The notes: generated from the sequence alone by a model not told the origin. Positions 2,044 through 37,174 are shown, counted from the stretch's first letter. The stretch: 64,000 bases of DNA from Oscillospiraceae bacterium (GCA_963603365.1 CAVCMI010000037.1:3552-67551); one strand, 5' to 3'. Translations and numbers: made by a program.

Positions 2044-2103
2044 TTTTTTTGTTGTTGAAATGTTTATGTATGAAATATTACGCAAAATGACTGTCCTTTT
2101 GTT

Positions 2104-3225: not shown

Positions 3226-3229
3226 AGTC

Positions 3230-8285: not shown

Positions 8286-8351
8286 AAAGCGTATGGTTAT
8301 GTGTTGTAATTAGATTCTGTTCCGGAACAGTGCAGTTGCATTTGACGGCTG

Positions 8352-8359
8352 CAAAGATA
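8352..8359 (-). promoter_or_regulatory. -7 box (reverse complement TATCTTTG) for gcvT
   Basis: caaagata on the + strand, 67 nt upstream of the gcvT ATG. Confidence 0.4.
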
Positions 8360-8507
8360 CAATTTTATGGCAAGCACGGGAAATGATATTTCGGATAATC
8401 CTTTCGCCAATAAGTATGCCTAAAAGAACATGCAGACGCGCCCCCGATGGGTTAAGGCTCGAGAAATAGAGTCGTCCATTTGCTTTGCCGTCCGGGCCTG
8501 CCTGTTT

Positions 8508-9791: not shown

Positions 9792-9828
9792 TTTCTGCGT
9801 AAAGAATAGGTTTTCCGAAAGGGAGCCA

Positions 9829-11049
9829 TTATTCTGAATCCCGGTTCTCGTGTGCCATTACGGGTAGAGGCTGGTCGATGACCTCGTGCCAGGGCAAGCC
9901 GTAGGCGCCGATTTCGGCCATAAACGGGTCTGGGTCGAACTGCTCCACGTTGAACACGCCGGTGCCTTTCCAGGTGCCGGTCAGTACCATCTTGGCGCAG
10001 AGCATGGCGGGCACCCCTGTGGTATAAGAAACGGCCTGCGCGCCGATTTCCCGGTAGCAGGCGGCGTGGTCGCAGTTGTTGTAGATATAATAGGTGCGGG
10101 GCTTGCCGTCCTTGACGCCGCTGATCTGGCAGCCGATGGAGGTTTGGCCATGGTAGCCTTCGCCGAGAGACGAGGGCTCGGGCAGCACGGCTTTCAGGAA
10201 CTGCAGCGGCACGATTTCCATGCCTTGATAGACAATCGGCTTGATGCTGGTCATGCCGACCTCCTGCAACACGTTAAGCACGGTGAGGTATTTCTGGCCG
10301 AATGTCATCCAGAAGCGGGCACGCTTGATGGTCGGGAAGCTCTTCACCAGCGATTCGAGCTCTTCATGATAGAGCAGGTACGACTCTCTTTCGCCGATGT
10401 CGGGATAGTTGACAGGGCGGTGCACCGACATGGGGTCAATCTCGACCCATTGGCCGTTTTCCCAGTATTTGCCGCGCTGGGTGATTTCGCGGATGTTGAT
10501 CTCGGGGTTGAAGTTCGTGGCGAAAGCTTTGCCGTGGTCGCCGGCGTTGCAGTCAACGATGTCGAGACAGTGCATCTCGTCAAAATGGTGTTTGGCAGCG
10601 TATGCCGTGTAGATGCTGGTGACGCCGGGGTCGAAGCCGCATCCCAGCAGCGCCATGATGCCGGCCTCTTTGAAACGGTCATGGTATGCCCACTGCCAGC
10701 TGTACTCGAACTTGGCCTTGTCGCGCGGCTCGTAGTTGGCCGTGTCCATGTAGTTGGTCCCGGTGGCCAGACAGGCGTCCATCAACGGGAGATCCTGATA
10801 GGGGAGCGCCACGTTGATCAGCAGGTCGGGGCGGCAACTTTCGATAAGCCGTACCGTCTCCTCGACATTGTCGGCGTCAACCCGGGCGGTTTTCACGTTC
10901 GCGTTCCCGGTCCGGGCGGCTATCTCGTCGCATTTTGACTTGGTGCGGGATGCAATCACGATTTCAGAGAACACTTCCGGCACGGAAGCGCACTTTTGTG
11001 CCACTACGGCCCCTACGCCTCCGGCACCTATGATAAGAACTTTTGCCAT
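9829..11049 (-). CDS. Saccharopine dehydrogenase family protein (carboxynorspermidine synthase/dehydrogenase-like)
   Basis: 406 aa. A Rossmann motif KVLIIGAGGVGAVVAQK is present, and the length and C-terminal domain fit the family. Confidence 0.85.
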   Translation of the reverse strand: MAKVLIIGAGGVGAVVAQKCASVPEVFSEIVIASRTKSKCDEIAARTGNANVKTARVDADNVEETVRLIESCRPDLLINVALPYQDLPLMDACLATGTNYMDTANYEPRDKAKFEYSWQWAYHDRFKEAGIMALLGCGFDPGVTSIYTAYAAKHHFDEMHCLDIVDCNAGDHGKAFATNFNPEINIREITQRGKYWENGQWVEIDPMSVHRPVNYPDIGERESYLLYHEELESLVKSFPTIKRARFWMTFGQKYLTVLNVLQEVGMTSIKPIVYQGMEIVPLQFLKAVLPEPSSLGEGYHGQTSIGCQISGVKDGKPRTYYIYNNCDHAACYREIGAQAVSYTTGVPAMLCAKMVLTGTWKGTGVFNVEQFDPDPFMAEIGAYGLPWHEVIDQPLPVMAHENRDSE

Positions 11050-15180: not shown

Positions 15181-15762
15181 ATGAAAAGATTATTTGTATT
15201 GTTCAGCCTCTGTGCTGTTCTGGCTGCAGGCTCTTCTGTACAGGCACAATGCACAAAAGATGCTAACAAATGCCAAAAGGAAAACAATGAGTGTGGAAAA
15301 AAATGCCATCCCAGCCTGATGACTCCCGCCACCGTGGATCTTCTCAAGGAAGCTTACTTGAAAGAGAACCTCAAACTTAACGACAATCAAAAGGACGCTT
15401 TCTGGAAATCCTACAACAAATACGGCGAAGCCCAAAAGCAAGCGGCAGAGAACAAGAAACAGGCAATGTTGAAAGCCGGCTTCTCCGGAGCTTGCTGCAA
15501 AATGGACACGGTGAAGCCTACTGACGAGAAAATCGTGGCTTGCCACAACATCAAGTTGGAATACCAACAGGCATTGCTCAAGGCTGAACAGACTTTCTTC
15601 AACGAGATTTCAAAGAACCTCTCAAAAGAACAGATTGCCCAATACATCCGTCTTGAAAAGGGCTTTGAAATGGAGATGAAAGGGCTGATGAAGAAAGACT
15701 GCTGCAAAAAGGGAGAGAACAGCCCCGCTCAACAAAAGCACGGCGGCTGCCACGGCAGATAG
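15181..15762 (+). CDS. Secreted Cys/His-rich helical protein of unknown function (possibly a Spy/CpxP-like periplasmic protein)
   Basis: Signal peptide MKRLFVLFSLCAVLAAGSSVQAQ. Cys clusters sit at both ends (CTKDANKCQKENNECGKKCH ... DCCKKGENSPAQQKHGGCHGR). The core is helical and K/E/Q-rich. A terminator follows. Confidence 0.6.
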   Translation: MKRLFVLFSLCAVLAAGSSVQAQCTKDANKCQKENNECGKKCHPSLMTPATVDLLKEAYLKENLKLNDNQKDAFWKSYNKYGEAQKQAAENKKQAMLKAGFSGACCKMDTVKPTDEKIVACHNIKLEYQQALLKAEQTFFNEISKNLSKEQIAQYIRLEKGFEMEMKGLMKKDCCKKGENSPAQQKHGGCHGR

Positions 15763-15783
15763 TCCTCTCAAACCTTAATCCCC

Positions 15784-15821
15784 AAAAGGCTGTACGGAAA
15801 CATCTCCTTACAGCCTTTTTT
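15784..15821 (+). terminator. Rho-independent terminator
   Basis: Stem aaaaggctgta/tacagcctttt with a 14-nt loop, ending in a T run. Confidence 0.65.
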
Positions 15822-15978
15822 ATAAGAACAACGTCAACGAGACCATGGCGCATTGTCTGTCACTGAATGCAATCGTGCGGTTTTCCACGTGTTTTTCCAT
15901 CAAAATCTCATTTAAAGGTCAGCAATGAAAAAAAATGTATATTTGCAGCCTGATATAAACTATAACCAATAATATATT

Positions 15979-23796: not shown

Positions 23797-23828
23797 CAGA
23801 ATGCCGTAAAACAATTTGCAGCATTCTG
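23797..23828 (-). terminator. Hairpin at the distal end of the defence operon
   Basis: 8-bp stem cagaatgc/gcattctg with a 16-nt loop and T-rich flanks on both strands. It lies 24 nt after the stop at 23852. Confidence 0.45.
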
Positions 23829-23851: not shown

Positions 23852-24436
23852 CTAAGTCAGCGTTTCCAGTACATCGTCCTCGTCGTAGGCATTGCCGGTG
23901 TCATCGCCTGGAGTGTCGGTAAAGGAGAGGAAAAGTTTCAAGAAAGCGCTTTCCCCGGAGAAGCAATTGGGGTTTTCTTCCATCTTTTCCAGCATAAAGG
24001 AGAACCCGAAATTGGCATACTGCTCCATTTTGTCTATCAGCAGGTCCACGACTTTCCGTTCTGTGATCTCGCCCTTGTCCAGTGCGATGAAGTCGATGTC
24101 GGTGCGGGCGATGAGGGCGGCAAAAAGGTATTCCCGGATTTGCCCGTAGGCAGTGCGCCCGAATCGGTTTTCCTGATTTCCCCAATATTGTATGGGCTGT
24201 CCGCAGACTTTCCGTTTCGCCTTGTCCTCGGTCAGCGGGATGGTCTTGTTGGAATACAGTCCGATGAAGAAGGCCAGGATGAAGACCTCATAGCCTGCCC
24301 CGAAAATCTTTCCCCTCGATTCTTGGTATGGTGTGGAACCGCGCCCGAAGTCGGAAAAAATGTCCATGATGGATTCTTGATAGCGCGTTTCCCATTGTGG
24401 GTTTCTTTTGCCCCAAAGGGTATATAAGGATTCCAT
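23852..24436 (-). CDS. 194-aa protein of unknown function, last gene of the Ssp-like operon (possibly related to dnd-system-associated small proteins)
   Basis: ATG start 2 nt after the upstream stop. One hydrophobic segment (YEVFILAFFIGLY) and an acidic tail (GDDTGNAYDEDDVLETLT). I recognise no catalytic motif. Confidence 0.7.
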   Translation of the reverse strand: MESLYTLWGKRNPQWETRYQESIMDIFSDFGRGSTPYQESRGKIFGAGYEVFILAFFIGLYSNKTIPLTEDKAKRKVCGQPIQYWGNQENRFGRTAYGQIREYLFAALIARTDIDFIALDKGEITERKVVDLLIDKMEQYANFGFSFMLEKMEENPNCFSGESAFLKLFLSFTDTPGDDTGNAYDEDDVLETLT

Positions 24437-24438
24437 AA

Positions 24439-26175
24439 TTATTTTATTTTTTCGATTGTTGTACGTATTGTTGCCATGTTCCGCTCGTCAAAGTCCGGGG
24501 CTTTTTTGAGACGATAGACGCTGCAAGTCAGCGCGTCGATGTCGTTAAGGCGCAGTTGCCCCTTGGTGATGAAGTCTTTGGTTACGATGATGCACTGTTT
24601 CTCGAGTTTGTCGATTACGTTGTAGAACTGTTCTTCTTTGGAGTCACCGAACGAGGAGGTGGCGGCATCGAAGATGAGGGGATAGGCTTCATCTCGCTTT
24701 TGGTTGGTGAAGTCCGAGATGGCAAAAAGCACTGACATATACATTACGGTCTTCTGCGATCCTGAAGGGCTCTTGATTTCGGTTCCATTGGAACTGAAAA
24801 GGTCAATTCTTGTGGATTCGTCAGCGGTTTGCCGCAATCGGATCTCTCCGTGAAAGTCGTTGGCGCTCAGCTTGTCCAGGTATTTGTTGGCGCAATCTTC
24901 CAACTCTCCGAGAAAACGGCGCAGGTTTTCGCTCTTGGCATGCTGAAACGCTTTGGCAATGGCCTCAAGCGTGCGGTGTATCTCCCGGTATACTTTGGCT
25001 TGGCTGCTCTGAGGGTCTAATTGGTCAAATGCCTTCTGCAGATTTGCTCTATCTTCGGAGAGCTTTTTGTGTTCGTGTTGCAGTTCCGCCAGACACAACT
25101 CCGCTCTTTCCTTTTGTTCGAACATCCCTTTGTAGTCTGTAAACTGTTTCTTGAGAAGATCTTCCGGGATGTTCGCCTGAATGAGCAAACGCGCCTTTTC
25201 GTCTTGCATTTCTTGGATTTTCCTTTTTTCTTCTTCGATTTCCTTCCTCAGTTTCGCCTCAAGGTCAAGGCGGTCGGTTATTTCTTCCTTTATGCCGGAT
25301 ATCTCTTTTTCTCTGTTCCCGCTCAGCTGCACGCTGAGATTATGGATCTTTTCAATGTGATTTGTCGTGAACAGTTCCTTCTTTTCCAGTTTTTCCAGTT
25401 CGCTTTCTTTCTCTTTCCGGCTGGCGACTTGTGCTTTGTACTCTTCGAGTTTGTCAACCATAAAGCGGTAGGCTTCCGAATCTTCAGGAGCGGGGCGTCC
25501 GCAGACCTTGCAGACATGGTCGTGGATCATTTCTTCCATGGTTTCCTCGTCAGGCAGATACCAGGGGAGTTTTGTCGCTCCGTTTTCAAACGTCCCGCAA
25601 AGTTCTTTTATGGCTTCGAGTTTCCCTTTCTCCATTGCTTTCTGTTTGATGAAGTCCTCATTCTGCCTGCGTCTCTCTTTGCTGAAAGCCGCGCTCTTTG
25701 CTTTGAATTCTTTCAGGATGGGCGGAAATGCGCAAAGTATCCAGAGTTTGTCAAAAAGTGCCGTGTTCTTGTCCACGGATTTAACAGTGCCCTCTTTCTT
25801 GGCTTTCTTCTCTTTCAGGTTCTCAAGACGGTCGCATACCGCTTTGTACCGTTCTGAGGTCTCTTGATGCTGTTCTATGTCAGCAAGACTGGAGGAGTAT
25901 TTGGAGACGCTTTCCTCTTTCTTGCTTATTTCCTTTTCTTTGTTGTCGATGTCATTGTCCAACTGCTCTATTCTTGATTTCAGCTCCTTGGCCGCTTCTG
26001 CAATTTGTTTGTCAGAGGTGCACTCTTTCACATAGGCCTTGTTTGACTTTTTCTCCATTTCGGAAGAGATGTTCACGAGCTCGTCAAACTTCCGGATGTC
26101 GGAGAACTTTTCGACGAGCTGTTTGAGCGCAGATTTGTCGTTGAAGACATCCAGTGTGGATTCCCCTTTGAACAT
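24439..26175 (-). CDS. SMC/Rad50/DndD-like ATPase, C-terminal 578-aa part (coiled coil, signature motif and Walker B)
   Basis: A long K/E-rich coiled coil with a CxxC hook-like element (HVCKVCGRP). The signature-like motif is SGSQKTVMYMSVLFAI and Walker B is PLIFDAATSSFGD. It is in the same frame as ORF 26185..26601, separated from it only by TAA plus 3 codons. Confidence 0.75.
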   Translation of the reverse strand: MFKGESTLDVFNDKSALKQLVEKFSDIRKFDELVNISSEMEKKSNKAYVKECTSDKQIAEAAKELKSRIEQLDNDIDNKEKEISKKEESVSKYSSSLADIEQHQETSERYKAVCDRLENLKEKKAKKEGTVKSVDKNTALFDKLWILCAFPPILKEFKAKSAAFSKERRRQNEDFIKQKAMEKGKLEAIKELCGTFENGATKLPWYLPDEETMEEMIHDHVCKVCGRPAPEDSEAYRFMVDKLEEYKAQVASRKEKESELEKLEKKELFTTNHIEKIHNLSVQLSGNREKEISGIKEEITDRLDLEAKLRKEIEEEKRKIQEMQDEKARLLIQANIPEDLLKKQFTDYKGMFEQKERAELCLAELQHEHKKLSEDRANLQKAFDQLDPQSSQAKVYREIHRTLEAIAKAFQHAKSENLRRFLGELEDCANKYLDKLSANDFHGEIRLRQTADESTRIDLFSSNGTEIKSPSGSQKTVMYMSVLFAISDFTNQKRDEAYPLIFDAATSSFGDSKEEQFYNVIDKLEKQCIIVTKDFITKGQLRLNDIDALTCSVYRLKKAPDFDERNMATIRTTIEKIK

Positions 26176-26184
26176 GCTGAACCG

Positions 26185-26601
26185 TTAGATGAAGGCATCG
26201 AAGCAGCGGTTGATGAGGTTTTTCCCGTCAACGGTCAGCCGTTCTGCCCCTTGCTCCTCAAAACCCCGGAATGTGGCCGGCTTGGACAAGAATCTGCCCT
26301 CGTGGTTCTTTTCAAAGGTGAACCGTTTTTCAATGAGCTTCTCTCCGTCGTGGTCAAACAGCATGGCCACTTTAACTTCATCGCTCTCACCGAAACTCAT
26401 TTCAGACTTGCGCATCTCTGACACGTTGTCGATGCTGTTGCTGGTGTTGACGACGTCGAACAGCCATTGCAGTGCTTCAAAGAACGTGGTTTTCCCGTCG
26501 CCGTTGTCGCCGATGAGGAGCGTCAGCCCGTTGGAGAACTCAAAACGGTTTTCGCCATAGTAACTGCGGAAGTTTTTGATGGTGATTTCCTTGATTGTCA
26601 T
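26185..26601 (-). CDS. SMC/Rad50/DndD-like ATPase, N-terminal 138-aa part (Walker A head)
   Basis: MTIKEITIKNFRSYYGENRFEFSNGLTLLIGDNGDGKTTFFEALQWLF is a typical AAA_23/SbcC-type N-terminus. It ends at the in-frame TAA (26185-26187). Confidence 0.7.
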   Translation of the reverse strand: MTIKEITIKNFRSYYGENRFEFSNGLTLLIGDNGDGKTTFFEALQWLFDVVNTSNSIDNVSEMRKSEMSFGESDEVKVAMLFDHDGEKLIEKRFTFEKNHEGRFLSKPATFRGFEEQGAERLTVDGKNLINRCFDAFI

Positions 26602-26605
26602 AGGT

Positions 26606-26836
26606 TCATACGTTTTTGTTTAAATAGTCGGTTATCTCTTTGTATATTTCTTTTTCCGTGGCGCCTTCTGAAGCGCGCTTGATAATTTGCGCCACGGTGC
26701 AGATTACGGTGTTGTCTGAACACAGGGCCAGAAGCAGAGGGGGAATTTCAGCGCAACTGTATTTCCCGAACGCCATGAGTTCAGGATTGCTCAGCACGGC
26801 TTCAAGCATTTTGTCGTTGTTTGTTTGATAGGCCAT
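26606..26836 (-). CDS. 76-aa protein of unknown function within the defence operon
   Basis: ATG start 2 nt after the upstream stop, and its own stop lies 4 nt before the next ATG. The sequence is helical and non-repetitive. I recognise no family. Confidence 0.55.
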   Translation of the reverse strand: MAYQTNNDKMLEAVLSNPELMAFGKYSCAEIPPLLLALCSDNTVICTVAQIIKRASEGATEKEIYKEITDYLNKNV

Positions 26837-26838
26837 AG

Positions 26839-29136
26839 TTATAGGATTGATAAATTGTAATATGTCAAGGTTTCGTCAAGTTCTTCGAGGGCGGCGTTCG
26901 CATTTTCCGACAGCAAGGCGAAGTCACTGACGCGCTTGAGTTCGCCCATTAGCATTTTGCGCTCCATAGCGTATGATTCTGCCGTCGGGTCAATGACAGG
27001 CACTACAATCAGGTCGTGGATGACAGCATGGTATTTGCCATTGCAGGTGCGCAGAATGCGGCCCCTGCGTTGGATGAACTGCCTGGGGTTGCCTGTGCTG
27101 GCACAGAATATGGCCATTTCGCTGCGGGGCACATCGACGCCTTCGTCCAGACATTTCATCGAGGTGAGCACTTCGATGTCGCCGCTCGCGAATCCGGACA
27201 GCAACTGCTTCCGCTCTCTGCTGTCGGCGGTGAATTTGCGCACAGTAGTGGTTTTGCTGACCTCTTGCACTATTTTGGTGTATCGGTCGATGAGCCGCTC
27301 GGTCTCCTCGTCCGGGTCAAGGGTCTCTTTAGTGTCGTAGAGGTCGGCCTCATAGTCGGGACGGTTGCCCTCGGGCACATAGACGAGCGTGTATTTCAGA
27401 TTTCCCTTTTCACGGTATCGCTCCTCAAGGATGCTCCGGAATATTTCCGTTTTGTTGGCGGCTTTCTGTATGATGCGCTTGCGCTTGATGAGCTGCATCT
27501 TTACTATCTCATTTTTTTCAGGGAACGGGGACTTGCCGTCCTCATTGATGAAGAACCCTTTCAGTTTGTCGCTTATTTCGATGTATTCTGTCATCTCGGC
27601 TTCGTTAAGGTAAACCAAGTGAGGATAGTAGTAATAACGGCACAGAAAACCGTTGTCGATGGCATCTTTCATGCTGTATTCAAAGGTGTAATGCTCTTCG
27701 ATGCCGAAAAAGTCGTTCAGTATGTTGTTTCCGGTTTCGTCAAATGGCCGGTCTGGAGTGGCAGAGAGTCCTATTCGCCGTTTGAAACGGATGTACCCCA
27801 AGAGGTCGAGAATCCTGCTGGCGCCCATATTGTGCGCTTCGTCTGCAATGAGAAGGGATTTCTTGCCCAATTGGTTCAGCGTTGCGAATACATTTTGGCG
27901 GGCAAAGGAGGCGTATGTCGAAATGATGATGAACGATTGCGGCGTCTCAGAAATGCCGAGTCTCTCTTTAATGAGGATGTTGTCAATTTCCTGCTCCCAA
28001 GTCCGGTTTTGTGAATAGATGTTGCAGATGTGCCCGAAATTGAATTTCTTGCACTCTTCGTCCCATTGCTCCACAAGGGTCTGGGTGGGCACCAATATTA
28101 GGGCGCGGTAGTAGCCGCATTGTTTGTATATCTCCAACAGGCAGTTGAGGGCGGTCAAGGTTTTGCCCGTGCCGGTAGCCATGGCAAAAAGCCCATTCTG
28201 TTTGTTTTTCCAGTTGTCGAAAGCTTGTCTCTGGTAGCCTCTCGGTCCGGAAGGGTACGGGAATTGCGGCTCGTGCAATGGCGCCGCGGATGCGTCTTCT
28301 GGCTCCCGGGTCCTGTCGATGGCGGCTTCCACTTTTTCACGGGCTCTGACAAGACACCTTTTCACCGTCGCCGACATTGCGGTTGACGTGTGGCTCGAAA
28401 CCAGTTCCTGCTCCTCTTTGAGCAGTTCGTGGACGTTTTTCTGTCCGAAGGCGTCCGTGATACGGGTTCTGATGTCTTGCGGGGCAATGTAGGCGACGTT
28501 CCCGTCTCTCTGTTCAAAGGTGCGGTTGAAGTCCTCTGCGATATCTTTGATTTTGTAGATGTCGTTGCCGCCGTCCCAGTCGCAGAATGCGGTGATGCTT
28601 TCGATGTTGTCGAGGAGCGCAGTTCGCGAAAAGTTGCATGACCCGTCAAAGGCCACCCGGTTTATGCCGTCGCTGAAGAGCCCGCACTTGGTGTGGGCGA
28701 TGCCGTGGCTGCCGACGGGAGCGATGACCTTTATGGCGATGCGGTCGTGGCGTATCAGAAAGGCAAGGCAGTTGAAGAAATGCCGGTCGCGGGCGGAAAG
28801 AGTGTTCTTTAACGATTCTATGTCGTTGAGGTTGAAGGCGGGCAGCGGGTTGCCGGACAGCCCCTCGTTGATCGACTGCTTGTCCTGCTCTGACAGGATG
28901 TCGTTGATGATCAAGCGCATTCTTCCGCCGTTGTAGATGAAGCACGCAAACCCGTCGCAAAGCACGTTGATGGCAGAAGATGAGAAGAATCCCAGTTTCA
29001 GGTCGAATGTGGTGGCATTGCAGAGGCCTTCGGAGAAAAAACCGATCGGTTCCCACTCGCTCTGCGACTGGAAGCGTCTGCTTTTGGGCCATATCACGTT
29101 TGTCTTCAGCATTTTTATATGAAACAGTTTGAACAT
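26839..29136 (-). CDS. PLD-family nuclease domain fused to an SF2 (DEAH, ResIII-type) helicase; putative restriction effector
   Basis: The HKD motif is HTKCGLFSDGINRVAFDGSCNFS. Helicase motif I is AMATGTGKT, II is LLIADEAHNMG, III is GLSATP and VI is QFIQRRGRILR. The alternative ATG at 29112 removes the 22-nt overlap with the upstream gene. Confidence 0.9.
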   Translation of the reverse strand: MFKLFHIKMLKTNVIWPKSRRFQSQSEWEPIGFFSEGLCNATTFDLKLGFFSSSAINVLCDGFACFIYNGGRMRLIINDILSEQDKQSINEGLSGNPLPAFNLNDIESLKNTLSARDRHFFNCLAFLIRHDRIAIKVIAPVGSHGIAHTKCGLFSDGINRVAFDGSCNFSRTALLDNIESITAFCDWDGGNDIYKIKDIAEDFNRTFEQRDGNVAYIAPQDIRTRITDAFGQKNVHELLKEEQELVSSHTSTAMSATVKRCLVRAREKVEAAIDRTREPEDASAAPLHEPQFPYPSGPRGYQRQAFDNWKNKQNGLFAMATGTGKTLTALNCLLEIYKQCGYYRALILVPTQTLVEQWDEECKKFNFGHICNIYSQNRTWEQEIDNILIKERLGISETPQSFIIISTYASFARQNVFATLNQLGKKSLLIADEAHNMGASRILDLLGYIRFKRRIGLSATPDRPFDETGNNILNDFFGIEEHYTFEYSMKDAIDNGFLCRYYYYPHLVYLNEAEMTEYIEISDKLKGFFINEDGKSPFPEKNEIVKMQLIKRKRIIQKAANKTEIFRSILEERYREKGNLKYTLVYVPEGNRPDYEADLYDTKETLDPDEETERLIDRYTKIVQEVSKTTTVRKFTADSRERKQLLSGFASGDIEVLTSMKCLDEGVDVPRSEMAIFCASTGNPRQFIQRRGRILRTCNGKYHAVIHDLIVVPVIDPTAESYAMERKMLMGELKRVSDFALLSENANAALEELDETLTYYNLSIL

Positions 29137-30215
29137 AGGATGTCGTCGCCGAAAAGGTCGGCGAGGGTGGTTCCTTTTTGTTTGGCTTTGTTCTCTTCCT
29201 GCCGTTTGATGACATCCAGTTTTATTTTGCGTACCCGTTCCGGCTTTATCAGGTCGGCAAGGCTCTCGCCCTGGTTCCAGGTGTAGCCGTCTTTTTCAAA
29301 GGCCATAGCCTTTTTGTAAAGGTCAGGGTGCTGTTCGTAAAGCCAAATCCATTCTATTTTTTGCTGGAAGAAGCAGAAATAGCAGCCGGAGCGGCTGCGG
29401 CAGTAGGTGCCCCTTTTGCCGTCCACCTCAAATGGAATCTCTTCGTAATAGGCGGGGACGCCGACACCGCTTTCCCGTAGCAGTCTGAATATGTCTTCTT
29501 TTACCAGCACGTCATCGTTGTCCACCAATGCAAAAGTGTCGAGTTTGCCTATAGGGTAGTCGGTTGTTTTCAGAAACTCAAACACGAGTCGGTTGAATGC
29601 TTTAATGTCGATGTCAAGCAACGCGTTCAGTTTTTTGGAATAATAGAACTGTTTGGAGAGCGGACGTTTCAGCATTTTCAGCATCTCCTCCTGCTTGCTG
29701 CCGGAGCAGAGCCTCGTGCAGAGGTCTATCATCTGTTCTTGCCGGTTGTTGTGCAGCACTTTGTTTATTACATCGAGACTCCAGATGTTGCGCCTGAACG
29801 GGAATACGGCCTGTATGTTCGGTTTGGAGGAGATGTACCCGTCTCGCTCTTCGTCGCCCCGGATGCCCACGTATGACACGGCATAGTCGTTACCTACATA
29901 TCGTTCAAACTCGGCGAGTTTCATTTTTTTTGTGCACCAGCGCGACTGCGGGGAGGGCAAGTATCCGCCTGCCGCTTTCAGGAAATGCTCGAACGGCGTG
30001 GCCTCTGGACTGCCTTCTGCCGCCCTCAGGCGCTTGATGGTGCCAAGATAGGCGGCAAGCCGGTCAATGAGCAGTTCGGTCTCCGCCAACTCGCAGCCCG
30101 TGTCTGAATTGTAGTACTCAATCTTGAGTTGCGGGTATTTCTGTTTCAGGTAGATGGCCAGCGCAGCGCTGTCTTTGCCGCCGGAAATGCCTAAGATATG
30201 TCTGACTGCGCTCAT
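29115..30215 (-). CDS. PAPS-reductase-family PP-loop ATP pyrophosphatase (SspD/DndC-like)
   Basis: The PP-loop is LGISGGKDSAALAIYL. A C-terminal Cys cluster is YCRSRSGCYFCFFQ. An ATGA overlap links it to the upstream ATPase gene. Confidence 0.9.
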   Translation of the reverse strand: MSAVRHILGISGGKDSAALAIYLKQKYPQLKIEYYNSDTGCELAETELLIDRLAAYLGTIKRLRAAEGSPEATPFEHFLKAAGGYLPSPQSRWCTKKMKLAEFERYVGNDYAVSYVGIRGDEERDGYISSKPNIQAVFPFRRNIWSLDVINKVLHNNRQEQMIDLCTRLCSGSKQEEMLKMLKRPLSKQFYYSKKLNALLDIDIKAFNRLVFEFLKTTDYPIGKLDTFALVDNDDVLVKEDIFRLLRESGVGVPAYYEEIPFEVDGKRGTYCRSRSGCYFCFFQQKIEWIWLYEQHPDLYKKAMAFEKDGYTWNQGESLADLIKPERVRKIKLDVIKRQEENKAKQKGTTLADLFGDDILCSNCFI

Positions 30216-33200
30216 TGCATTTTCTTCTTTAATAGGTTCATAAGGGTGTAGATGTCGAGGTTGGCATTGCCTGTCAGGACGGCGTCTATTTGATGTTCAA
30301 GTGTTTCTGATTTCTTCTTGTCGTTTTCTGTGATTCGGTAGTCCATGGCTTCCGACAATACGCAACATTTTTCGCACTCTTTGAAAAGGAAAACGATGTT
30401 GTCAGCCAGTTGCTCTTCCTGCTCATCACGCAGCCGTTCCAGGGGCTGGTCGAGGGCCGCATAGCTGATGCTCTGGAACCATTCTGTCCGGTCGTCGAAG
30501 GTTGTCATGGCATGGCGGTAAAAGTCGAGCTGCTTGTCTGAAAGCAGTTGCTCTTTGATGTGGGAGAGGCGTTCCCTGATTTCCACGATGTATTCGGCAT
30601 AATGCTGCGATTGGAGGCCGAGACGGTCCACGAGTTGCCGTTCCAGCCGGTTGATGAGTTCGGCATAGCAAGAGCGCAGTTCCCGCACGGCTTGCTGTAT
30701 GAGGGCGCAATAGCCGGCCACAAACGTTTCGTCGTTCAGGGTCTCTTTCCGGTATCCGAGCGCTTGCGGCAGGTCTTCAAAGAAAGTCTTTTCCGGATCC
30801 TTGGCATCGGCAAGCACGTCCCTGAAGCGCAGGGTTGTGCTGTGGTCAAATTTGCGCGTATGCCGGGCATAGTCGTTCAGGCGGCTGTAAAAGAAAAAGA
30901 ACGGCCGGATAGTTTCAATGAATTTGTCTCCCTTGATTCCGCTCTCCGTACCGGCATGGATGAATTTGCGGTATTGGTTGAAGAAGGCCGTCTTTATGCC
31001 GTCTTCGGAATAGGCTTTAATGCTGAATGAGTCGGGATGTTTCTTCAGCAGGTCGAAGAATTCCATGTTGATGTTGGGGATGTAAGCCCCATTGCCCCCG
31101 AAAAGGCTGTAGTCCAGTCTTTTTATGAACAGGTAGGTGGGGATCCAGAAATCAAGCACGCCGGCTTTGAGTTTGAAAGGCCGGGCGGAAAGGATGGCGA
31201 TGAGTTCAGAGATTTTCCGCCTCCGTTCACAAGTGCTGCGCAGGAAATCCTCGCTGGCTTTCCACAAGGTCATGATTTCACCGTTGCATGGTGCATCGGC
31301 GAAAGTGCCGTTTACATGTATGCCGGTTGTTTTCAGCAGGGTGCAATAGATGGTTTTCTCCGGCGGATACTTGTCTTTCTCAAAGCCGAGGTCTTCAACT
31401 TCGCTCCGTTCAACCAGGGCCTGAAGGTATTTTGACTTTGCCGCCGAGATGCTGCTGCTCAGTTTGTGGCGGTTGATGAGCTCGTTGTTGATGACAGGGG
31501 TGTCCGGATAAACATCGTCACAGATTTCAGACAGCAGCGCGTTGAAACCGCGAAGGCTTCTGATGCTCTTTTCTTCCCCTTTGTAAAACCAGACAACATC
31601 TCCGCTGTAGTTGAAAAGGTTCTCTTTTACAAGTTTGTTGAGAAGTGTCTGTTCGTATGACTTGAGCCTTTCCACCTCCTGAATGGCTACACGGTCTGAC
31701 TTGTCTATGAGTACTTTGTTGAGGATATAGTCATAGATGCTGATTCTGTGGAGATGCCGGATGATGTTGTCGGCATGGATGAAAACGGCAAACAGTACCG
31801 CATGGGTGCAGCCGGCGCTGAAATGCTTGACACATTCCGGCATTGTTGCGCTGTTCTGCGAGAACACGAGTTCTATGAATCCGTCTATGTCTCCCGACGG
31901 GGACATGTCGAGAGGCGTGTCCAGAAGGATATACTCGAAAAAGCGAGGTGTGCCCCGGTGGTAATAGCAGGCTTTTGCCGGGGCTACCATGCCGTTGAAG
32001 TTGGCGCGAAGCTCGTCCACGGGATTTGCCGGAGCCGGCACGGCGGCGGCAGCCTTGGCTATCTCCTCGTCAATGTTGAAGTCAGTGCCCTCAAAAAGGA
32101 TGTGGCGGCCTTTGTACTCTGCATAGCGGATAATTTTCAGCTGTTTCAGTCTGTCGATGACGGTTTCTGCCGCTCTGCAGTCCATAGCCCTTGACGAATA
32201 TCCGGAAAGTTGGGCGCACGACATCTTGAAGCCGGCATTGCCGAACAGGTTGAGCAAGCCGACGGCCTTGACAATCTTCAGGGCCTCTTGCAGGATGTTC
32301 TCATCTTGCCAGTCTGCCGTTTCAATGCGCTCTATGGCCGAGCGGATGGCTCTCCATCCGGTCGAGTCGGCATGGGGTTCGTTGAGGTATGCGTGGAAAG
32401 TGTTGACAAGGTAATCGTAAACGTCAGAGAGACTGTATGTTTTGTTTTCGGAACTGTGGAAGCGCCTGATCGAATGTTCCCCATCGGCGGCGAGGAAAGA
32501 GAAGAGAGAGCGCTCGTTCTGCCCATACCGCTGTATGGCTTTCGTGAGAACGGCGGCTGAAAAGGCATCAAGCGGCCAGAGACGGCAAACGGTTTCTGAA
32601 GTGAGCGACGGCGAGATGAACCTGCTCTCTTGGGCAATCTTGAAGATTTCGCCGGAACAGCCTTTTGCGCTGTGCCCGTTCCGCTCGGCAGCCAGAAAAA
32701 GCAGTTGCTCTACGGGCTCTGAAAAAACCACTTCATGGAACCGGCCTTTCACCTTTGTCCATTCGTTTTTCTGTGACAAGGAGAGCCGAGAGGCGTAAGC
32801 GCTGAAGTTCTGGTGAAGCGTGGTGAGCAGCAGGATATCGCGTCGGGGCACGTTGGCAAATTCGGCCAGCTGCTGCAGGAAATAGAGTTCCTCTTCGGGG
32901 TTGTTGGCGGCAGCATGCTCTAACGTCTTCCCGAACTCATCAATGACGAGGACGAACATTTTGCCTTGGCTTTTGAGCTGGTCGTAGCGCAGCTTCAGTG
33001 TCGTCATCACCGAGTCTCCGGTGCATCCCAGCCTGTCGGCCAGGAGGCTTTTCAGCGGTTTGTATTGTCCTACGATGTTGAGGATGTCGAAGCCCGAAGC
33101 CCATGTCAGCGACTTTGGGTCTTTGAGCAGAAGCCGGCGCTTCGTCAGTCCGAGCAGGTCGTTCTCCAGATTGACGAGGAAACAGGATTTCCCGGTGCCG

Positions 33201-33349
33201 TAGGTCCCGATGATAGTGAATGAATGAATGCCAATATGGTATTGGTTCACAATTTCCGCCAAGGCTTCCTGTACGTTCGGGGTGACAATGTAGGTGTCGT
33301 TGCCGGAGACCCCGGTTTCAATGTTTGCTGAAAGGTTAAATTGTCTCAT
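30212..33349 (-). CDS. Large P-loop NTPase, 1045 aa (SspC-like)
   Basis: Walker A is IIGTYGTGKSCF and Walker B is VLVIDEFGKTLE. A helical C-terminal region of about 750 aa follows. ATGA overlaps occur on both sides. Confidence 0.85.
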   Translation of the reverse strand: MRQFNLSANIETGVSGNDTYIVTPNVQEALAEIVNQYHIGIHSFTIIGTYGTGKSCFLVNLENDLLGLTKRRLLLKDPKSLTWASGFDILNIVGQYKPLKSLLADRLGCTGDSVMTTLKLRYDQLKSQGKMFVLVIDEFGKTLEHAAANNPEEELYFLQQLAEFANVPRRDILLLTTLHQNFSAYASRLSLSQKNEWTKVKGRFHEVVFSEPVEQLLFLAAERNGHSAKGCSGEIFKIAQESRFISPSLTSETVCRLWPLDAFSAAVLTKAIQRYGQNERSLFSFLAADGEHSIRRFHSSENKTYSLSDVYDYLVNTFHAYLNEPHADSTGWRAIRSAIERIETADWQDENILQEALKIVKAVGLLNLFGNAGFKMSCAQLSGYSSRAMDCRAAETVIDRLKQLKIIRYAEYKGRHILFEGTDFNIDEEIAKAAAAVPAPANPVDELRANFNGMVAPAKACYYHRGTPRFFEYILLDTPLDMSPSGDIDGFIELVFSQNSATMPECVKHFSAGCTHAVLFAVFIHADNIIRHLHRISIYDYILNKVLIDKSDRVAIQEVERLKSYEQTLLNKLVKENLFNYSGDVVWFYKGEEKSIRSLRGFNALLSEICDDVYPDTPVINNELINRHKLSSSISAAKSKYLQALVERSEVEDLGFEKDKYPPEKTIYCTLLKTTGIHVNGTFADAPCNGEIMTLWKASEDFLRSTCERRRKISELIAILSARPFKLKAGVLDFWIPTYLFIKRLDYSLFGGNGAYIPNINMEFFDLLKKHPDSFSIKAYSEDGIKTAFFNQYRKFIHAGTESGIKGDKFIETIRPFFFFYSRLNDYARHTRKFDHSTTLRFRDVLADAKDPEKTFFEDLPQALGYRKETLNDETFVAGYCALIQQAVRELRSCYAELINRLERQLVDRLGLQSQHYAEYIVEIRERLSHIKEQLLSDKQLDFYRHAMTTFDDRTEWFQSISYAALDQPLERLRDEQEEQLADNIVFLFKECEKCCVLSEAMDYRITENDKKKSETLEHQIDAVLTGNANLDIYTLMNLLKKKMQ

Positions 33350-34200
33350 TGTCTTGAATAGTAGTGGTCGAGTGCCGTGTCGGGGCTGATGATGTTGGTG
33401 AATTGCAGTTGCCTCAGTCCGGCGGTGTCTGAGTACCGGATGTGGTCAGGGTACTGTTCCTGAAGCGCGGCCAGCGCGGCCACGGTTTCCATATCGTTCA
33501 TGCAGAACACGAGCCCGATGTCCTGCAGGGTGTCGTATTCCACGCTGTTGTCGTTGCCTTTCTCTTTGAGGATGGCATAGAGGAGAATGTCCGGCGGTAT
33601 CGGTCTTTTGCCTTCTATGTTGAAGAGGAAAGTCCTGCCGTTGGATGTGCGAATGAGGTCCAGGTCGATGAGCAGGGCTGAATACTCGTCGGTGTTGTTT
33701 GAGTTTTGCGGAAGAACGTAGTTGGAAAGCATGACACGGATGTCCTTTTTGACGGTGTTTTCGTTGAATGATTTCAGTTTGCCGTCTTCGGCCATGGCGC
33801 GTTTTGCCAAAGCGAGCAGATGTTGCCGGTCAAAAGAGAGCCGTTCTTTCTGCAGCCGTGTGAACAGCAGGTGATAGAGGGTCGCCTCCTTGGCAGATAC
33901 CAGCAGATAGTGTAGCAGCCATAGGGTGCCGAGGTCTTCCAGATAGGGGTCGTATCCCGTTTCGGTGTCAAGGAGTTGCCGGGCGATGTTAGTGAGCCGG
34001 TCGTTGCAGGTCATCCCGAAAGCCTTCATCCAGTAGCGGATGGAGGATACCATGTTTTTGCCTACGCCGAGATGCACCACGGCATCTGGGACATTGAAGT
34101 TATATCCGTCTTTGATGAAATCGTAGCCTTTTTTCAGCCATAACGTTTTGCAGGCGAAAGATTCGTGTCCTGAGAAGGTGTATTTTGCGGTCGGTTGCAT
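33346..34200 (-). CDS. DUF4007-like protein (SspB-like)
   Basis: From the ATG at 34200 the protein begins MQPTAKYTFSGHESFACKTLWLKKGYDF, the typical DUF4007 N-terminus, and gives 284 aa. The track ORF extends to a TTG at 34542, with another ATG at 34482. That 114-aa extension is Cys/Arg/Trp-rich and not protein-like. Confidence 0.75.
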   Translation of the reverse strand: MQPTAKYTFSGHESFACKTLWLKKGYDFIKDGYNFNVPDAVVHLGVGKNMVSSIRYWMKAFGMTCNDRLTNIARQLLDTETGYDPYLEDLGTLWLLHYLLVSAKEATLYHLLFTRLQKERLSFDRQHLLALAKRAMAEDGKLKSFNENTVKKDIRVMLSNYVLPQNSNNTDEYSALLIDLDLIRTSNGRTFLFNIEGKRPIPPDILLYAILKEKGNDNSVEYDTLQDIGLVFCMNDMETVAALAALQEQYPDHIRYSDTAGLRQLQFTNIISPDTALDHYYSRQ

Positions 34201-34618
34201 GCCTTGATGCGGTCGTTCGGGTCTGTTCCGGATACACTTCCCTTCTCTCCGGGCGTTCGTCGTTCGTTTTCGCTTGTACAGAATGAAAAAAGCGTGGGAA
34301 ATCTTGCCTGTTGCCCATCTGTCTGCTCGGGGCCTTAGCATTGCCCAAATCGTCAAGACGGACAACGCAAAAGCCCACGCGTGGCATATATCAATCCTGC
34401 GTTCCGGGCAGCCGCAGCACCCGCAGACGGAGGGCAGCGACAAACCGCGGCAGGGAAAGACATACCTACCGTGAACATTCATCGTTGTCTTGTCCTTTGA
34501 CGATTTTTCGACAGTTGCTAAGTTTCGAGCAGCCAAAGACAAGCGTCAGATAAACGCTCAATTCAAAAAGTAGCATCAGCAAGTTTGACCCTCTCGGGCT
34601 TCCGCTTGAAGATGCGCG

Positions 34619-34626
34619 CAAAGATA
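34619..34626 (-). promoter_or_regulatory. Candidate -7 box (reverse complement TATCTTTG) for the defence operon
   Basis: caaagata on the + strand. It is the only exact TAnnTTTG match I found upstream of the operon, and it implies a leader of about 410 nt if the ATG at 34200 is used. Confidence 0.35.
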
Positions 34627-34701
34627 TGTTTTTTTTGAAAGAATGATAATATGACAGAAAAACAATTGGGGCAATCGAAAGAATCTCTGATTAGTTTTTG
34701 T

Positions 34702-34709
34702 TATATTTG
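34702..34709 (+). promoter_or_regulatory. Candidate -7 box TATATTTG directly upstream of an inverted repeat
   Basis: An exact TAnnTTTG match ends 2 nt before the 13/14-nt inverted repeat at 34711-34777. Confidence 0.35.
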
Positions 34710-34710
34710 C

Positions 34711-34777
34711 CGCGCTGGTCTCTTTGGATTATGTCCTGCCTGTCGGCGGCCTTCACAAGGTTCAGAGAACCAGCGCG
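34711..34777 (+). repeat. Imperfect inverted repeat enclosing 40 nt (candidate structured small RNA or protein-binding site)
   Basis: cgcgctggtctct (34711-34723) pairs with agagaaccagcgcg (34764-34777), with one bulged A. An inner hairpin is ggccttcacaaggtt. Confidence 0.6.
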
Positions 34778-34893
34778 AAAAGGTTAAAGACAGAAGTCCA
34801 CATAAAGTTATGAAGCCATGAAATCGGCATGCAATACATTATTTTTGACATCCAACATCCAATGGCTTGGAAAGAATAACCACGCACAGTGAC

Positions 34894-34930
34894 CCCCATA
34901 CGACGGTTCCGTGTTTTCAGTCGTATGGGG
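34894..34930 (+). other. Perfect 11-bp stem hairpin with a 15-nt loop
   Basis: ccccatacgac (34894-34904) pairs with gtcgtatgggg (34920-34930). No U-tract follows on either strand. Confidence 0.5.
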
Positions 34931-35032
34931 ACTACAAATCATCCCAATGTTGCCCAAAGCACGCCTTGCAGAACATTGATCAGGTGCAACGGGATTCTAT
35001 ATTTATTATTTCAAACAAAAAAACAGATTAAA

Positions 35033-35536
35033 ATGAAAAAGATTATTATATGGGTGCTTTCATTTGTGGCATTGTTTTGTGCATGTGACAAAACGGATGG
35101 CATTTCAGACAGCCTTGATGCCGCCAAGGTGTCGCTTAAACCCGAAAATCCGAGAACTTGTTGTTGTCCGTATGAGACTCAGATAAAAGAGGAAAGCAAT
35201 AGTTATTGCTGTGAAAAAGGGAAAGGCTGTGCGCCATGTGTGGTGATAACACCTGTTCAGTCCGGCGACGGTGAGTTCAGCAGTTCGAATCATCTGACAA
35301 TGGCAACTGATTTGTTGGGAGAAGAACCGGCAGAAGTGGCTGCGTTTTTTTCAAATAAATCGTATTTCGATGACATTTTCCCTCTCCTCTATGGCACAGA
35401 AATACACAGCAAATTGTGTACGGGCGACTATGTCATGAGCGACATTGTACAGGCATACCGGTCCAACAATCGCGTGTTTTTGTTTACGAACATTAAGGAT
35501 AATTCCAAAGTTGCCGTGCCGTATGCAGAAGAATAG
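35033..35536 (+). CDS. Lipoprotein with a Cys-rich segment, function unknown
   Basis: The ATG at 35033 gives MKKIIIWVLSFVALFCAC (lipobox). The Cys-rich stretch is CCCPYETQIKEESNSYCCEKGKGCAPC. The upstream part of the track ORF (GTG at 34889) covers the hairpin and is unlikely to be coding. Confidence 0.65.
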   Translation: MKKIIIWVLSFVALFCACDKTDGISDSLDAAKVSLKPENPRTCCCPYETQIKEESNSYCCEKGKGCAPCVVITPVQSGDGEFSSSNHLTMATDLLGEEPAEVAAFFSNKSYFDDIFPLLYGTEIHSKLCTGDYVMSDIVQAYRSNNRVFLFTNIKDNSKVAVPYAEE

Positions 35537-36689
35537 TCACTTTATCAACTGTGCAAAGGCAGGTGCATGTCTTTGCACAGTTGTTTCCTTGTTTGTCGCA
35601 CTGATTTCTCAGTCTGCCTCCTGCTCTCGCAAGCAGATGACGCTGCATTACGTTGACACATTGTCCATACCCCACGACATCGGAATGTACTATTCATTTT
35701 ACTCCCCTTTTGAGGGCGATCTTATAAATACGTACTATTATACGACAGACAGCGGATACGCTGTTTTGAATTACTGCAAAGGATCAATTTTCCCCGCCAC
35801 ACAATTCAAGCACAGGAATTATATCCAGAACTGCATTATAGAGAACGACTCAAGCCTCATTATCCAGTTCCCTAAAGACAGTTTCCTGCTTAGAATTGAC
35901 AACCGGGGTTTTGTGAAAGACACGTTGTCAAGCAACATGAGATATGTGAAAGATGAAAAGTTCATTATGAACACGTTCTTTAAACACTATTATTTACCTG
36001 TAAAGGCCGATTCGGGGATTTTATATTGCGACTGTTTTATTCTCAATGAACTTGATTATGTAACCAACTATAATTCCCGGAAAAGCATGTTCTCAAGGCC
36101 TGTTTTTTCACAATGTATCGTCGGGGGAAAACAGATAGACCAGACCGCCTCAGGAATCGGCAGATTTCCCTATACTCATTTGCAGAAAGACACTTCCAGG
36201 TATTTTTTCAGCGTCATGTCAACCATGAACAAAGACACGTCCATTGTGGCAGTATATGCATTTGTGGATTCTGTTTTTGTGATACACCTTGACGGTTCTC
36301 AAGAGAGCCACTATTTCCGCAGCAAATACCAGAAACATGAGAACGAAATGCTCGATGTTTCCGTCTATGACTATGTGGGATTAGAGAAACTCAGCTGTTC
36401 GCAAACGAAATATTCGGGCATACTGTACGACCCCTACAGGAATTATTACTATGTCGTTGTGACAAAACCTATGAATCCCGAAAATGAAGATGGGACAAAA
36501 AACTCCTCAGATGAAAGGCCATGGTCGCTGATTGTTTTGGATTCCGGATTCAGGCAGCTTGCAGAAATTGACATGCCTGACAATTTTGGAGCCTTTGACT
36601 GTATGGTGACTCGCGAAGGACTTGCAGTTATGGATTATTCGTTAACAGAAAGCAACAATAATGTTTTTGTGATATGCGATATATATTGA
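35523..36689 (+). CDS. Putative lipoprotein, about 388 aa, possibly a beta-propeller of the Bacteroidales DUF4221/BF3164-like type
   Basis: The ATG at 35523 gives MQKNSHFINCAKAGACLCTVVSLFVALISQSASC. The rest is rich in beta-strand-like Y/F/D/S repeats. The family assignment comes from memory of size and composition only. Confidence 0.6.
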   Translation: MQKNSHFINCAKAGACLCTVVSLFVALISQSASCSRKQMTLHYVDTLSIPHDIGMYYSFYSPFEGDLINTYYYTTDSGYAVLNYCKGSIFPATQFKHRNYIQNCIIENDSSLIIQFPKDSFLLRIDNRGFVKDTLSSNMRYVKDEKFIMNTFFKHYYLPVKADSGILYCDCFILNELDYVTNYNSRKSMFSRPVFSQCIVGGKQIDQTASGIGRFPYTHLQKDTSRYFFSVMSTMNKDTSIVAVYAFVDSVFVIHLDGSQESHYFRSKYQKHENEMLDVSVYDYVGLEKLSCSQTKYSGILYDPYRNYYYVVVTKPMNPENEDGTKNSSDERPWSLIVLDSGFRQLAEIDMPDNFGAFDCMVTREGLAVMDYSLTESNNNVFVICDIY

Positions 36690-37174
36690 AACCAAGTAAC
36701 GTTACGACCATGGCGTTTGCAACAATGATACTGTTGATGTCATGCACGGCAAAGAATGCAGCAACGGAACAAGAGAACGACTTACAGAAACGGAGCCGTT
36801 TTTTCAATTCCTATATGGCAGAAGCCTTCCCCTCCTTCACAATAACGGACGGAGAATACTTGTTCATCCTGCCTAACGGGTGTACAAACTGCACGGAATC
36901 TACATGTTCCATGTTGTCGGTAAGCCCGGCACTCGTAAAAGGGAAATACAACGCCATCCTGATTTCAAAAGCCACATTAGACAGACTCTCCTATGAGTTT
37001 TTTTCGGAAGCCGACAATGTTTTGATAGACTCCACCAACAAGCTGGACAAAATGGCTTTTGACATTGCAGGCATTGCCGTAATGAAAATAGAAAACAGAC
37101 AGATTGTGGCAAAAAAAAGCATGACCGCCAAAGATTTTCAGAACAACCCGGAAGCGTTTTTCAGCCCGATGTAA
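36674..37174 (+). CDS. Small lipoprotein, function unknown
   Basis: The lipobox is ILLMSC and a CxxC-like element is PNGCTNCTESTC. The alternative ATG at 36710 avoids the 16-nt overlap with the upstream gene. Confidence 0.6.
   Translation: MRYILKPSNVTTMAFATMILLMSCTAKNAATEQENDLQKRSRFFNSYMAEAFPSFTITDGEYLFILPNGCTNCTESTCSMLSVSPALVKGKYNAILISKATLDRLSYEFFSEADNVLIDSTNKLDKMAFDIAGIAVMKIENRQIVAKKSMTAKDFQNNPEAFFSPM

Follow-up and report, generated by a model that had tools for sequence, protein, structure and literature searches.

A seven-gene SspBCD-PbeABCD operon with a structured RNA leader in gut Bacteroidales: a pairing of known modules and a likely new regulatory RNA

With what restriction partner, and under what control, do the SspB, SspC and SspD proteins of single-strand DNA phosphorothioation (PT) work when no established effector is encoded beside them? 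The question concerns most of these loci, as the paper describing SspFGH found 83.9% of 2,678 sspBCD loci to be without a known effector (sspE or sspFGH), and the only systems named in reviews up to December 2025 are Dnd-FGH, Dnd-Pbe, Ssp-E, Ssp-FGH and Tdp. It is raised in concrete form by a stretch of 64,000 nucleotides (nt) deposited under the name Oscillospiraceae bacterium (GCA_963603365.1, CAVCMI010000037.1:3552-67551; hereafter the window), in which a closely packed operon of seven genes runs on the minus strand from 34200 down to 23852. It opens with sspB, sspC and sspD, its last four genes correspond to the PbeABCD effector otherwise described beside Dnd genes, and a conserved RNA structure lies between its promoter box and its first gene. 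We consider it likely that the whole is a single transcription unit joining a PT self-marking machine to a PbeABCD-type effector, i.e., a pairing of known modules together with what is likely a new regulatory RNA. In the order in which they would be transcribed, the features are:

34619-34626, minus strand: -7 promoter box TATCTTTG, of the Bacteroidota type TAnnTTTG, read directly in the sequence
34286-34616, minus strand: structured RNA leader of about 330 nt, an elongated rod of 13 helices (covariance model, 313 bits, E = 6e-104)
33346-34200, minus strand: sspB, 284 amino acids (aa), DUF4007 DNA-binding subunit (Pfam DUF4007, E = 2e-75; PADLOC SspB, E = 7e-90)
30212-33349, minus strand: sspC, 1045 aa, P-loop ATPase related to BrxC (PADLOC SspC, 1117 bits)
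29115-30215, minus strand: sspD, 366 aa, PP-loop sulfurtransferase of the PAPS-reductase type (PADLOC SspD, E = 2e-85)
26839-29112, minus strand: pbeA, 757 aa, fusion of an HKD/PLD nuclease with an SF2 helicase (PADLOC PbeA, PDLC02706); 765 aa long if translation began at 29136
26606-26836, minus strand: gene in the pbeB position, 76 aa, matching PbeB in location and size (66 aa in the type system)
24439-26601, minus strand: pbeC pseudogene of 720 codons, CxC-type ATP-binding cassette (ABC) ATPase, with an in-frame TAA at 26185-26187 (codon 139)
23852-24436, minus strand: pbeD, 194 aa, identified through an hhalign comparison of its family with canonical PbeD
23797-23828, minus strand: hairpin 3' of pbeD, the probable operon terminator, its 10-bp stem CAGAAUGCUG/CGGCAUUCUG leading into a U-rich tail

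Judged by its profile matches, the modification half is complete in its core: a DNA-binding SspB, an SspC ATPase and an SspD PP-loop sulfurtransferase are present, and the identification of the trio as SspB/SspC/SspD in the first-pass annotation, which had been made from the sequence alone, is upheld at 299, 1117 and 285 bits, respectively, in PADLOC. The DUF4007 match of SspB spans the full length of the model, and that of SspC covers positions 9-1010 of 1039, with a Walker A motif GTYGTGKS and a weaker match to BrxC. The third protein is identified by the SspD model, together with the motif SGGKDS; its matches to PAPS_reduct and to DndC are weak. Translation of sspB was assigned to the ATG at 34200, and gene callers give 284 aa in the sibling strains as well. 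A longer SspB of 398 aa from a TTG codon, which would reach 34542, was rejected: the SspB and DUF4007 profiles begin at about residue 121 of it, its frame is not kept across lineages, the ratio of synonymous to non-synonymous changes is about 4:8 in every frame, and its N-terminal extension overlaps the non-coding RNA. No sspA or other cysteine desulfurase gene was found in the operon, among ten size-matched open reading frames (ORFs) of the window or in related loci; according to the literature SspA is dispensable where IscS substitutes for it, which it often does, and the sulfur would here be supplied by a housekeeping desulfurase. As had been noted before, there is no methyltransferase within the operon. 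The chromosome would carry PT in one strand, an expectation that follows from the writer being SspBCD and not DndCDE, and the predicted site is CpsC, since gut isolates bearing sspBCD are reported to carry that modification.

The effector half is, by its predicted proteins, a known PbeABCD-type module, that is, a CxC ABC-ATPase module, and neither SspE, SspFGH nor new. The first-pass annotation had correctly set it apart from SspE and had proposed an SspFGH-type or undescribed module in its place, a proposal that gives way to the match of PbeA to PADLOC model PDLC02706, which scores 1045 bits and extends over positions 2-722 of 722; no SspE, SspF/G/H or DndF/G/H model is among the PADLOC matches listed for the operon proteins (for two of the proteins, the best 25). 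With TIGR04095, dnd_restrict_1 ("DNA phosphorothioation system restriction enzyme"), PbeA scores 402 bits, which is under the 600-bit cutoff of that model. It had been described as a PLD-nuclease/SF2-helicase fusion; the helicase part is borne out by Pfam (ResIII/DEAD/Helicase_C) and the PLD match is weak (E = 0.002), yet the HKD motif is conserved, as H-x-K...D...G-S-x-N aligns, along with MATGTGKT and DEAH, with canonical plasmid PbeA proteins. In PbeC, Walker A is N-terminal, the signature and Walker B are C-terminal, and between them, at about residue 364 of 720, stands an invariant CK[VI]CGRPA, whose CxxC would form a Zn hook; such a mid-protein Cys hook at the apex of a coiled coil is what defines the CxC ABC ATPases to which PbeC belongs (Krishnan et al. 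2020; Rakesh et al. 2024). The PbeD of the window has itself no match in Pfam, NCBIfam, PADLOC or PDB, and its family, a small one of 229 clusters, was aligned as a whole with canonical PbeD ("DNA phosphorothioation-associated protein 4", from three annotated plasmids): hhalign gave a probability of 89.9% (E = 1.7e-6), the two have in common a motif E-x-Y-[AT]-N-x-G-[LF], and 2 of 41 family members match the PADLOC PbeD model (E = 0.011). Four 190-aa proteins of this family (P0156, P0183, P0204 and P0237) are named "glycoside hydrolase family 15" by NCBI/UniRef, a label that looks like a propagated misannotation because of their match to the PbeD profile and their position in the operon.

The closest described counterpart is thus DndCDEA-PbeABCD of Haloterrigena jeotgali (Xiong et al. 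2019), known to Krishnan et al. (2020) and Rakesh et al. (2024) as the CxC ABC-ATPase-DndE system. The two agree in the order and sizes of the effector genes (PbeA with its HKD and SF2 parts, then a small protein, then the coiled-coil ABC ATPase whose Cys hook lies in mid-protein, and lastly a small PbeD), and for PbeA and PbeD homology is demonstrated. They differ in the writer, which here is SspBCD, with its ORC/BrxC-like ATPase and DUF4007 protein, in the divergence of PbeB and PbeD, too great for the PADLOC and NCBIfam models, and in the Bacteroidales host and the RNA leader of the operon. With SspABCD-SspE and SspABCD-SspFGH the locus shares the SspB/C/D core and the union of writer and effector in one operon, whereas SspE (DUF262-DUF1524) and SspF/G/H are replaced by the PbeABCD-type effector and no sspA is linked. 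By analogy with DndCDEA-PbeABCD, the Pbe proteins would scan DNA and block or cut any that is without PT, and it is through them that PT-free DNA would be discriminated.

Several results weigh against so direct an equation with the type system. The 76-aa protein has no family match in Pfam, PADLOC or NCBIfam, and hhalign gives it a 2% probability against canonical PbeB, i.e., no detectable homology; as the least conserved product of the operon (77% identical to its L001 orthologue) it is called PbeB for its position, size and fast evolution, and the name is a positional one. An intact orthologue of PbeC scores 73 bits with LmuB of Lamassu and 60-72 bits with the PADLOC PbeC models, so that the assignment of PbeC by sequence is not exclusive. 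The published kinship of PbeD with DndE was not reproduced: none of 41 family members has a Pfam DndE match, no PDB sequence was matched, and Foldseek gave no match with a PbeD model whose mean predicted local distance difference test score was only 62. Finally, PbeABCD occurs also without PT genes, and one comparative study doubts that it reads PT at all.

The architecture of the operon nevertheless ties its two halves closely together. The minus-strand ORFs are all present as first listed, in a series without breaks from 34542 to 23852, and the junction sequences and their translation bear out the ATGA overlaps at both 33346-33349 and 30212-30215, as well as the ambiguity at the junction between the halves, where sspD stops at 29115-29117 and pbeA starts either at 29136 (a 22-nt overlap) or at 29112 (a 2-nt gap), the latter being the choice of the gene callers and of the orthologues. 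The gaps that follow are 2 nt between pbeA and pbeB, 4 nt between pbeB and pbeC and 2 nt between pbeC and pbeD. What had been counted as eight ORFs are seven genes, because two pieces read as separate parts of an SMC/DndD-like ATPase belong to a single pbeC. The promoter box and the downstream hairpin both stood up as well: a box equivalent to TATCTTTG precedes the aligned homologous RNA copies at the same offset, and the hairpin, which a simple terminator scan missed, has a folding z of -2.8. Beyond it lie the housekeeping genes apbE and rnr.

Whether the association goes beyond this one locus was addressed by tracing relatives of PbeA and PbeD to their contigs, the neighbourhood survey that had been proposed with the first description. 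The order sspB-sspC-sspD-pbeA-pbeB-pbeC-pbeD recurs in at least five different flanking contexts in gut Bacteroidales: between apbE-rnr flanks (L001, L017); with ArdC/IS66 neighbours in contigs of the Parabacteroides goldsteinii type (L008-L010); in contigs of the Prevotella type, by a sigma-54 activator and LptE (L011-L013), with PbeD listed in 580 collection blocks; by FtsK/DnaX (L014-L015); and in an element that also encodes integrases and a relaxase (L016). The cassettes of all five contexts hold an intact pbeC of 720-730 aa. The host of the window would itself be an uncultured gut Bacteroidales bacterium, to judge from its closest named relatives (Prevotella, Paraprevotella, Parabacteroides and Bacteroidaceae), the promoter box of the TAnnTTTG type, the absence of Shine-Dalgarno sequences and a gene with a Por_Secre_tail domain (type IX secretion) that flanks the sibling-strain locus L017. 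For every Bacteroidales PbeA at least 59% identical to that of the window and with sufficient upstream sequence, sspBCD lies directly upstream. More distant PbeA proteins (25-34% identical) adjoin dndC-dndD-dndE and a desulfurase, or a methyltransferase, or have no annotated modification gene within 9 kb, in keeping with the literature, where PbeABCD is found with DndCDEA, with methylases or alone (Xiong et al. 2019; Rakesh et al. 2024); because of these varied neighbours, the Pbe module is to be seen as portable, re-pairing with different marking systems and coupled in gut Bacteroidales to SspBCD. A helicase of Accumulibacter (L004, 25% identical) proved not to be part of a Pbe locus and was dropped.

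Some of these loci have peculiarities of their own. In the contigs of the Parabacteroides goldsteinii type, two extra genes (8200-9993) stand between sspD and pbeA, one of 178 aa without a match and one of 414 aa with a DndB domain (PADLOC DndB, E = 3e-24), and in L008 and L009 sspC was called in two pieces (192 + 897 aa). In L016 an extra gene of 198 aa follows pbeD (15256-15852), and a gene for a 74-aa Xre-type helix-turn-helix protein (4606-4830) lies directly upstream of sspB; because it occupies the place that the RNA has in the window, it suggests that the same cassette is served by alternative regulators. The L001 contig (CAVEXN010000012.1) is titled "Oscillospiraceae bacterium" and is syntenic with the Bacteroidota-like window at 84-93% protein identity; the metagenome-assembled genome that it represents is probably mis-binned or mislabelled.

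The strongest of the alternatives is that two independent systems are merely neighbours here, SspBCD being an orphan epigenetic writer of PT and Pbe/CxC a stand-alone, PT-independent device, for example an abortive-infection nuclease restrained by the small protein. In its favour, about 58% of PbeAC pairs are without nearby dndCD and the similarity rates of DndCD and PbeAC correlate only weakly (rho = 0.107; Xiong et al. 2019), plasmid examples of Pbe have a methylase or no annotated modification gene nearby, and CxC systems have been described as independent and possibly cutting self DNA (Rakesh et al. 2024). For the locus studied here we nevertheless regard it as unlikely: the genes overlap or nearly abut behind a single promoter and leader, all seven move jointly through at least five unrelated contexts, and sspBCD stands immediately upstream of the Bacteroidales PbeA proteins specified above. 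No description of an Ssp-Pbe pairing was found in the searchable literature, including reviews up to December 2025, and it is thus the operonic union of SspBCD with PbeABCD, and not the effector, that appears to be undescribed. For the majority of sspBCD loci no restriction partner is known; this cassette offers one that is abundant among the Bacteroidales of human and animal guts, and a Pbe module that pairs with either Dnd or Ssp writers bears on the dispute over whether Pbe/CxC reads PT. If the coupled reading is true, SspBCD-PbeABCD would be a third and very common Ssp effector pairing, accounting for part of the orphan sspBCD loci.

In the window itself, not all four pbe genes are intact. 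The ORFs of 138 and 578 aa that had been taken for two in-frame pieces of an SMC/DndD-like ATPase are one pbeC gene split by the TAA at codon 139, which in the intact orthologues L001 and L017 (720-722 aa) is CAA, for Gln139; this residue is not claimed as the Q-loop glutamine of the ABC ATPases, the orthologue L011 having Arg there. L017 is of the same species as the window (99.6% nucleotide identity over 20.6 kb). The same TAA stands in L018, an independent assembly that is 100% identical to the window over 5.3 kb; the stop codon is not a one-off assembly error, though L018 may derive from the strain or sample that gave the window. In three other assemblies of this species there is a second and different knock-out, with homology ending inside pbeC and giving way to foreign DNA:

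26311 (window position): insertion of an insertion sequence (IS) with a DDE_Tnp_1 transposase into pbeC, found in L005 (12803-12933), L006 (9558-10140) and L007 (2891-3026)

Within this one species (99.4-99.6% nucleotide identity), the pbeC alleles are therefore intact (L017), nonsense (the window and L018) and IS-interrupted (L005-L007). As read from its sequence, the allele of the window is a null one, and we think it highly probable that PbeC function has been lost. Since any single pbe deletion impaired protection in the type system, where PT-modified virus escapes (Xiong et al. 2019), so that all four genes are needed there, the strain of the window most likely modifies its DNA and would restrict no longer. 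What speaks against this conclusion is that the two parts of a split PbeC might assemble, if translation restarts at Met143. Within one species, the intact, nonsense and IS alleles amount to a natural experiment on what the effector does and what it costs.

It might also be supposed that in this species the entire cassette is on its way to inactivity, a decaying relic that serves no current function, and the two different lesions that have knocked out pbeC in five of the six assemblies would agree with such a view. We hold it to be improbable, however, in that every other gene of the operon is full length, with 77-93% protein identity to its L001 orthologue, one strain keeps an intact pbeC, and the lesions are confined to that gene, a pattern that looks like a selective loss of restriction and not like general decay.

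There remains the question of how the writer genes are controlled, and here the stretch upstream of sspB, which the first-pass annotation had passed over as untranslated, holds a conserved structured RNA that the locus shares with those of BREX type 4. Among the window, L001 and L002, the 440 nt upstream of sspB are 90-99% identical, compared with 79-84% for coding DNA, and the leader has no coding signature. An RNAalifold consensus of 14 non-redundant copies has 87 pairs in 13 helices, 29 of the pairs with compensatory changes, against 2-8 when the pairing partners were slid by 1-3 columns; the same comparison gave standard pairs in 97.9% of cells against 31-48%, and a covariation score of 0.315 against at most 0.087. 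On four of five measures the observed values were out of reach of all 500 shuffles, and the covariance model scored 313 bits on the minus strand and 14.8 bits on the opposite one. On this pattern of covariation the leader is a structured RNA. At gathering thresholds Rfam 15 returned nothing over the whole window, and at E up to 10 it gave only chance-level matches in 34100-34750; no upstream tRNA, tmRNA or known Rfam RNA was found, and the searchable literature yielded no mention of it. That the leader is instead a DNA-level feature, such as a miniature inverted-repeat transposable element or a recombination site, is very improbable, for although it folds as an imperfect hairpin of about 300 nt with sharp edges of conservation, it occurs once per locus in constant orientation, with its own promoter box and with brxP or sspB starting 79-95 nt further on, and its 29 compensatory pairs are joined by many invariant G-U pairs that are valid on one strand alone. 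A search for it as a repeat found a single copy in the window.

Homologues of the leader were retrieved from metagenomes with one exact 20-mer, which brought in 45 contigs (L019-L063) and which itself builds in the invariance of the terminator hairpin among these copies, so that the real diversity of the family is not captured by them. A leader homologue of 270-350 nt is present in 44 of the 45, next to sspB in none of the 44, and immediately upstream of BrxP in 38; five of the other six contigs end less than 200 nt from the RNA. In most of the 38 the BrxP alignment begins 79-95 nt past the RNA, as sspB does at 85 nt in the window, and one locus that was fully checked reads brxP-brxC-pglZ-brxL, i.e., BREX type 4. 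PT writing by this system has recently been shown in Bacteroides, and BrxP amounts to a fusion of SspD and SspB (Nat Commun 2026, PMC12914056). The window thus resembles BREX type 4 in its leader of about 330 nt, in the spacing of the leader to the first gene and in its writer, BrxC being homologous to SspC, and differs in that the partners are PbeABCD and not PglZ and BrxL. The presence of one leader in front of both ties the Ssp and BREX type 4 writers together by regulation. It is not a general feature of ssp-pbe cassettes, as no copy was found upstream of those in L008-L016 by blastn, nhmmer profile or covariance model.

Two observations concern individual BREX loci. In L022, L026, L029 and similar contigs, tblastn aligns BrxP from residue 1 at about 85 nt past the RNA and the first ORF ATG lies about 390 nt downstream; brxP may have a non-ATG start there, or be mis-called. 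In L024, a 618-aa protein with no PADLOC match (about 1800-3656) is encoded between the RNA and brxP.

The BREX type 4 copies also suggest how the RNA might act. They end in a strong hairpin of 7-8 bp, CGUGGGAU/AUCCCACG, followed by a U-tract, and the 5' arm of this hairpin doubles as the 3' arm of the rod base, the layout expected of a transcription attenuator. Because terminator and rod base would compete, the leader could be a cis-acting attenuator that gates read-through into the genes of the PT writer. In the ssp-linked copies, three in number, that strong hairpin has been lost: three of its pairs are gone, and the window keeps the 3' U-tract beside an eroded stem. Against the attenuator role it must be said that the alternative pairings are predicted ones, and that covariation in the BREX type 4 terminator did not reach significance. 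The RNA might sense a metabolite, or might bind the DUF4007 writer protein in a form of autoregulation. Partial and tightly dosed modification is an old puzzle of PT systems, and the leader provides a handle on how PT writing is controlled.

Taken in its fullest form, the proposal is that an undescribed class of cis-regulatory RNA, with the leader of the window as its founding ssp-linked member, gates PT-writer operons (brxPCZL and sspBCD-pbeABCD) in gut Bacteroidales, and that SspBCD-PbeABCD is a third Ssp pairing that explains part of the 84% of sspBCD loci that are orphans; we put this forward tentatively, as having somewhat less than an even chance of being right in all its parts. If this is true, we know of no earlier case in which a system of DNA-backbone modification and defence is controlled at the level of RNA.

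On the other side of the leader, between it and mnmA, the window has a block of low GC content (42-45%; 34889-37174, plus strand) with three divergent ORFs of 215, 414 and 166 aa, the first and last of which have no match, and the middle one a match to DUF4221.

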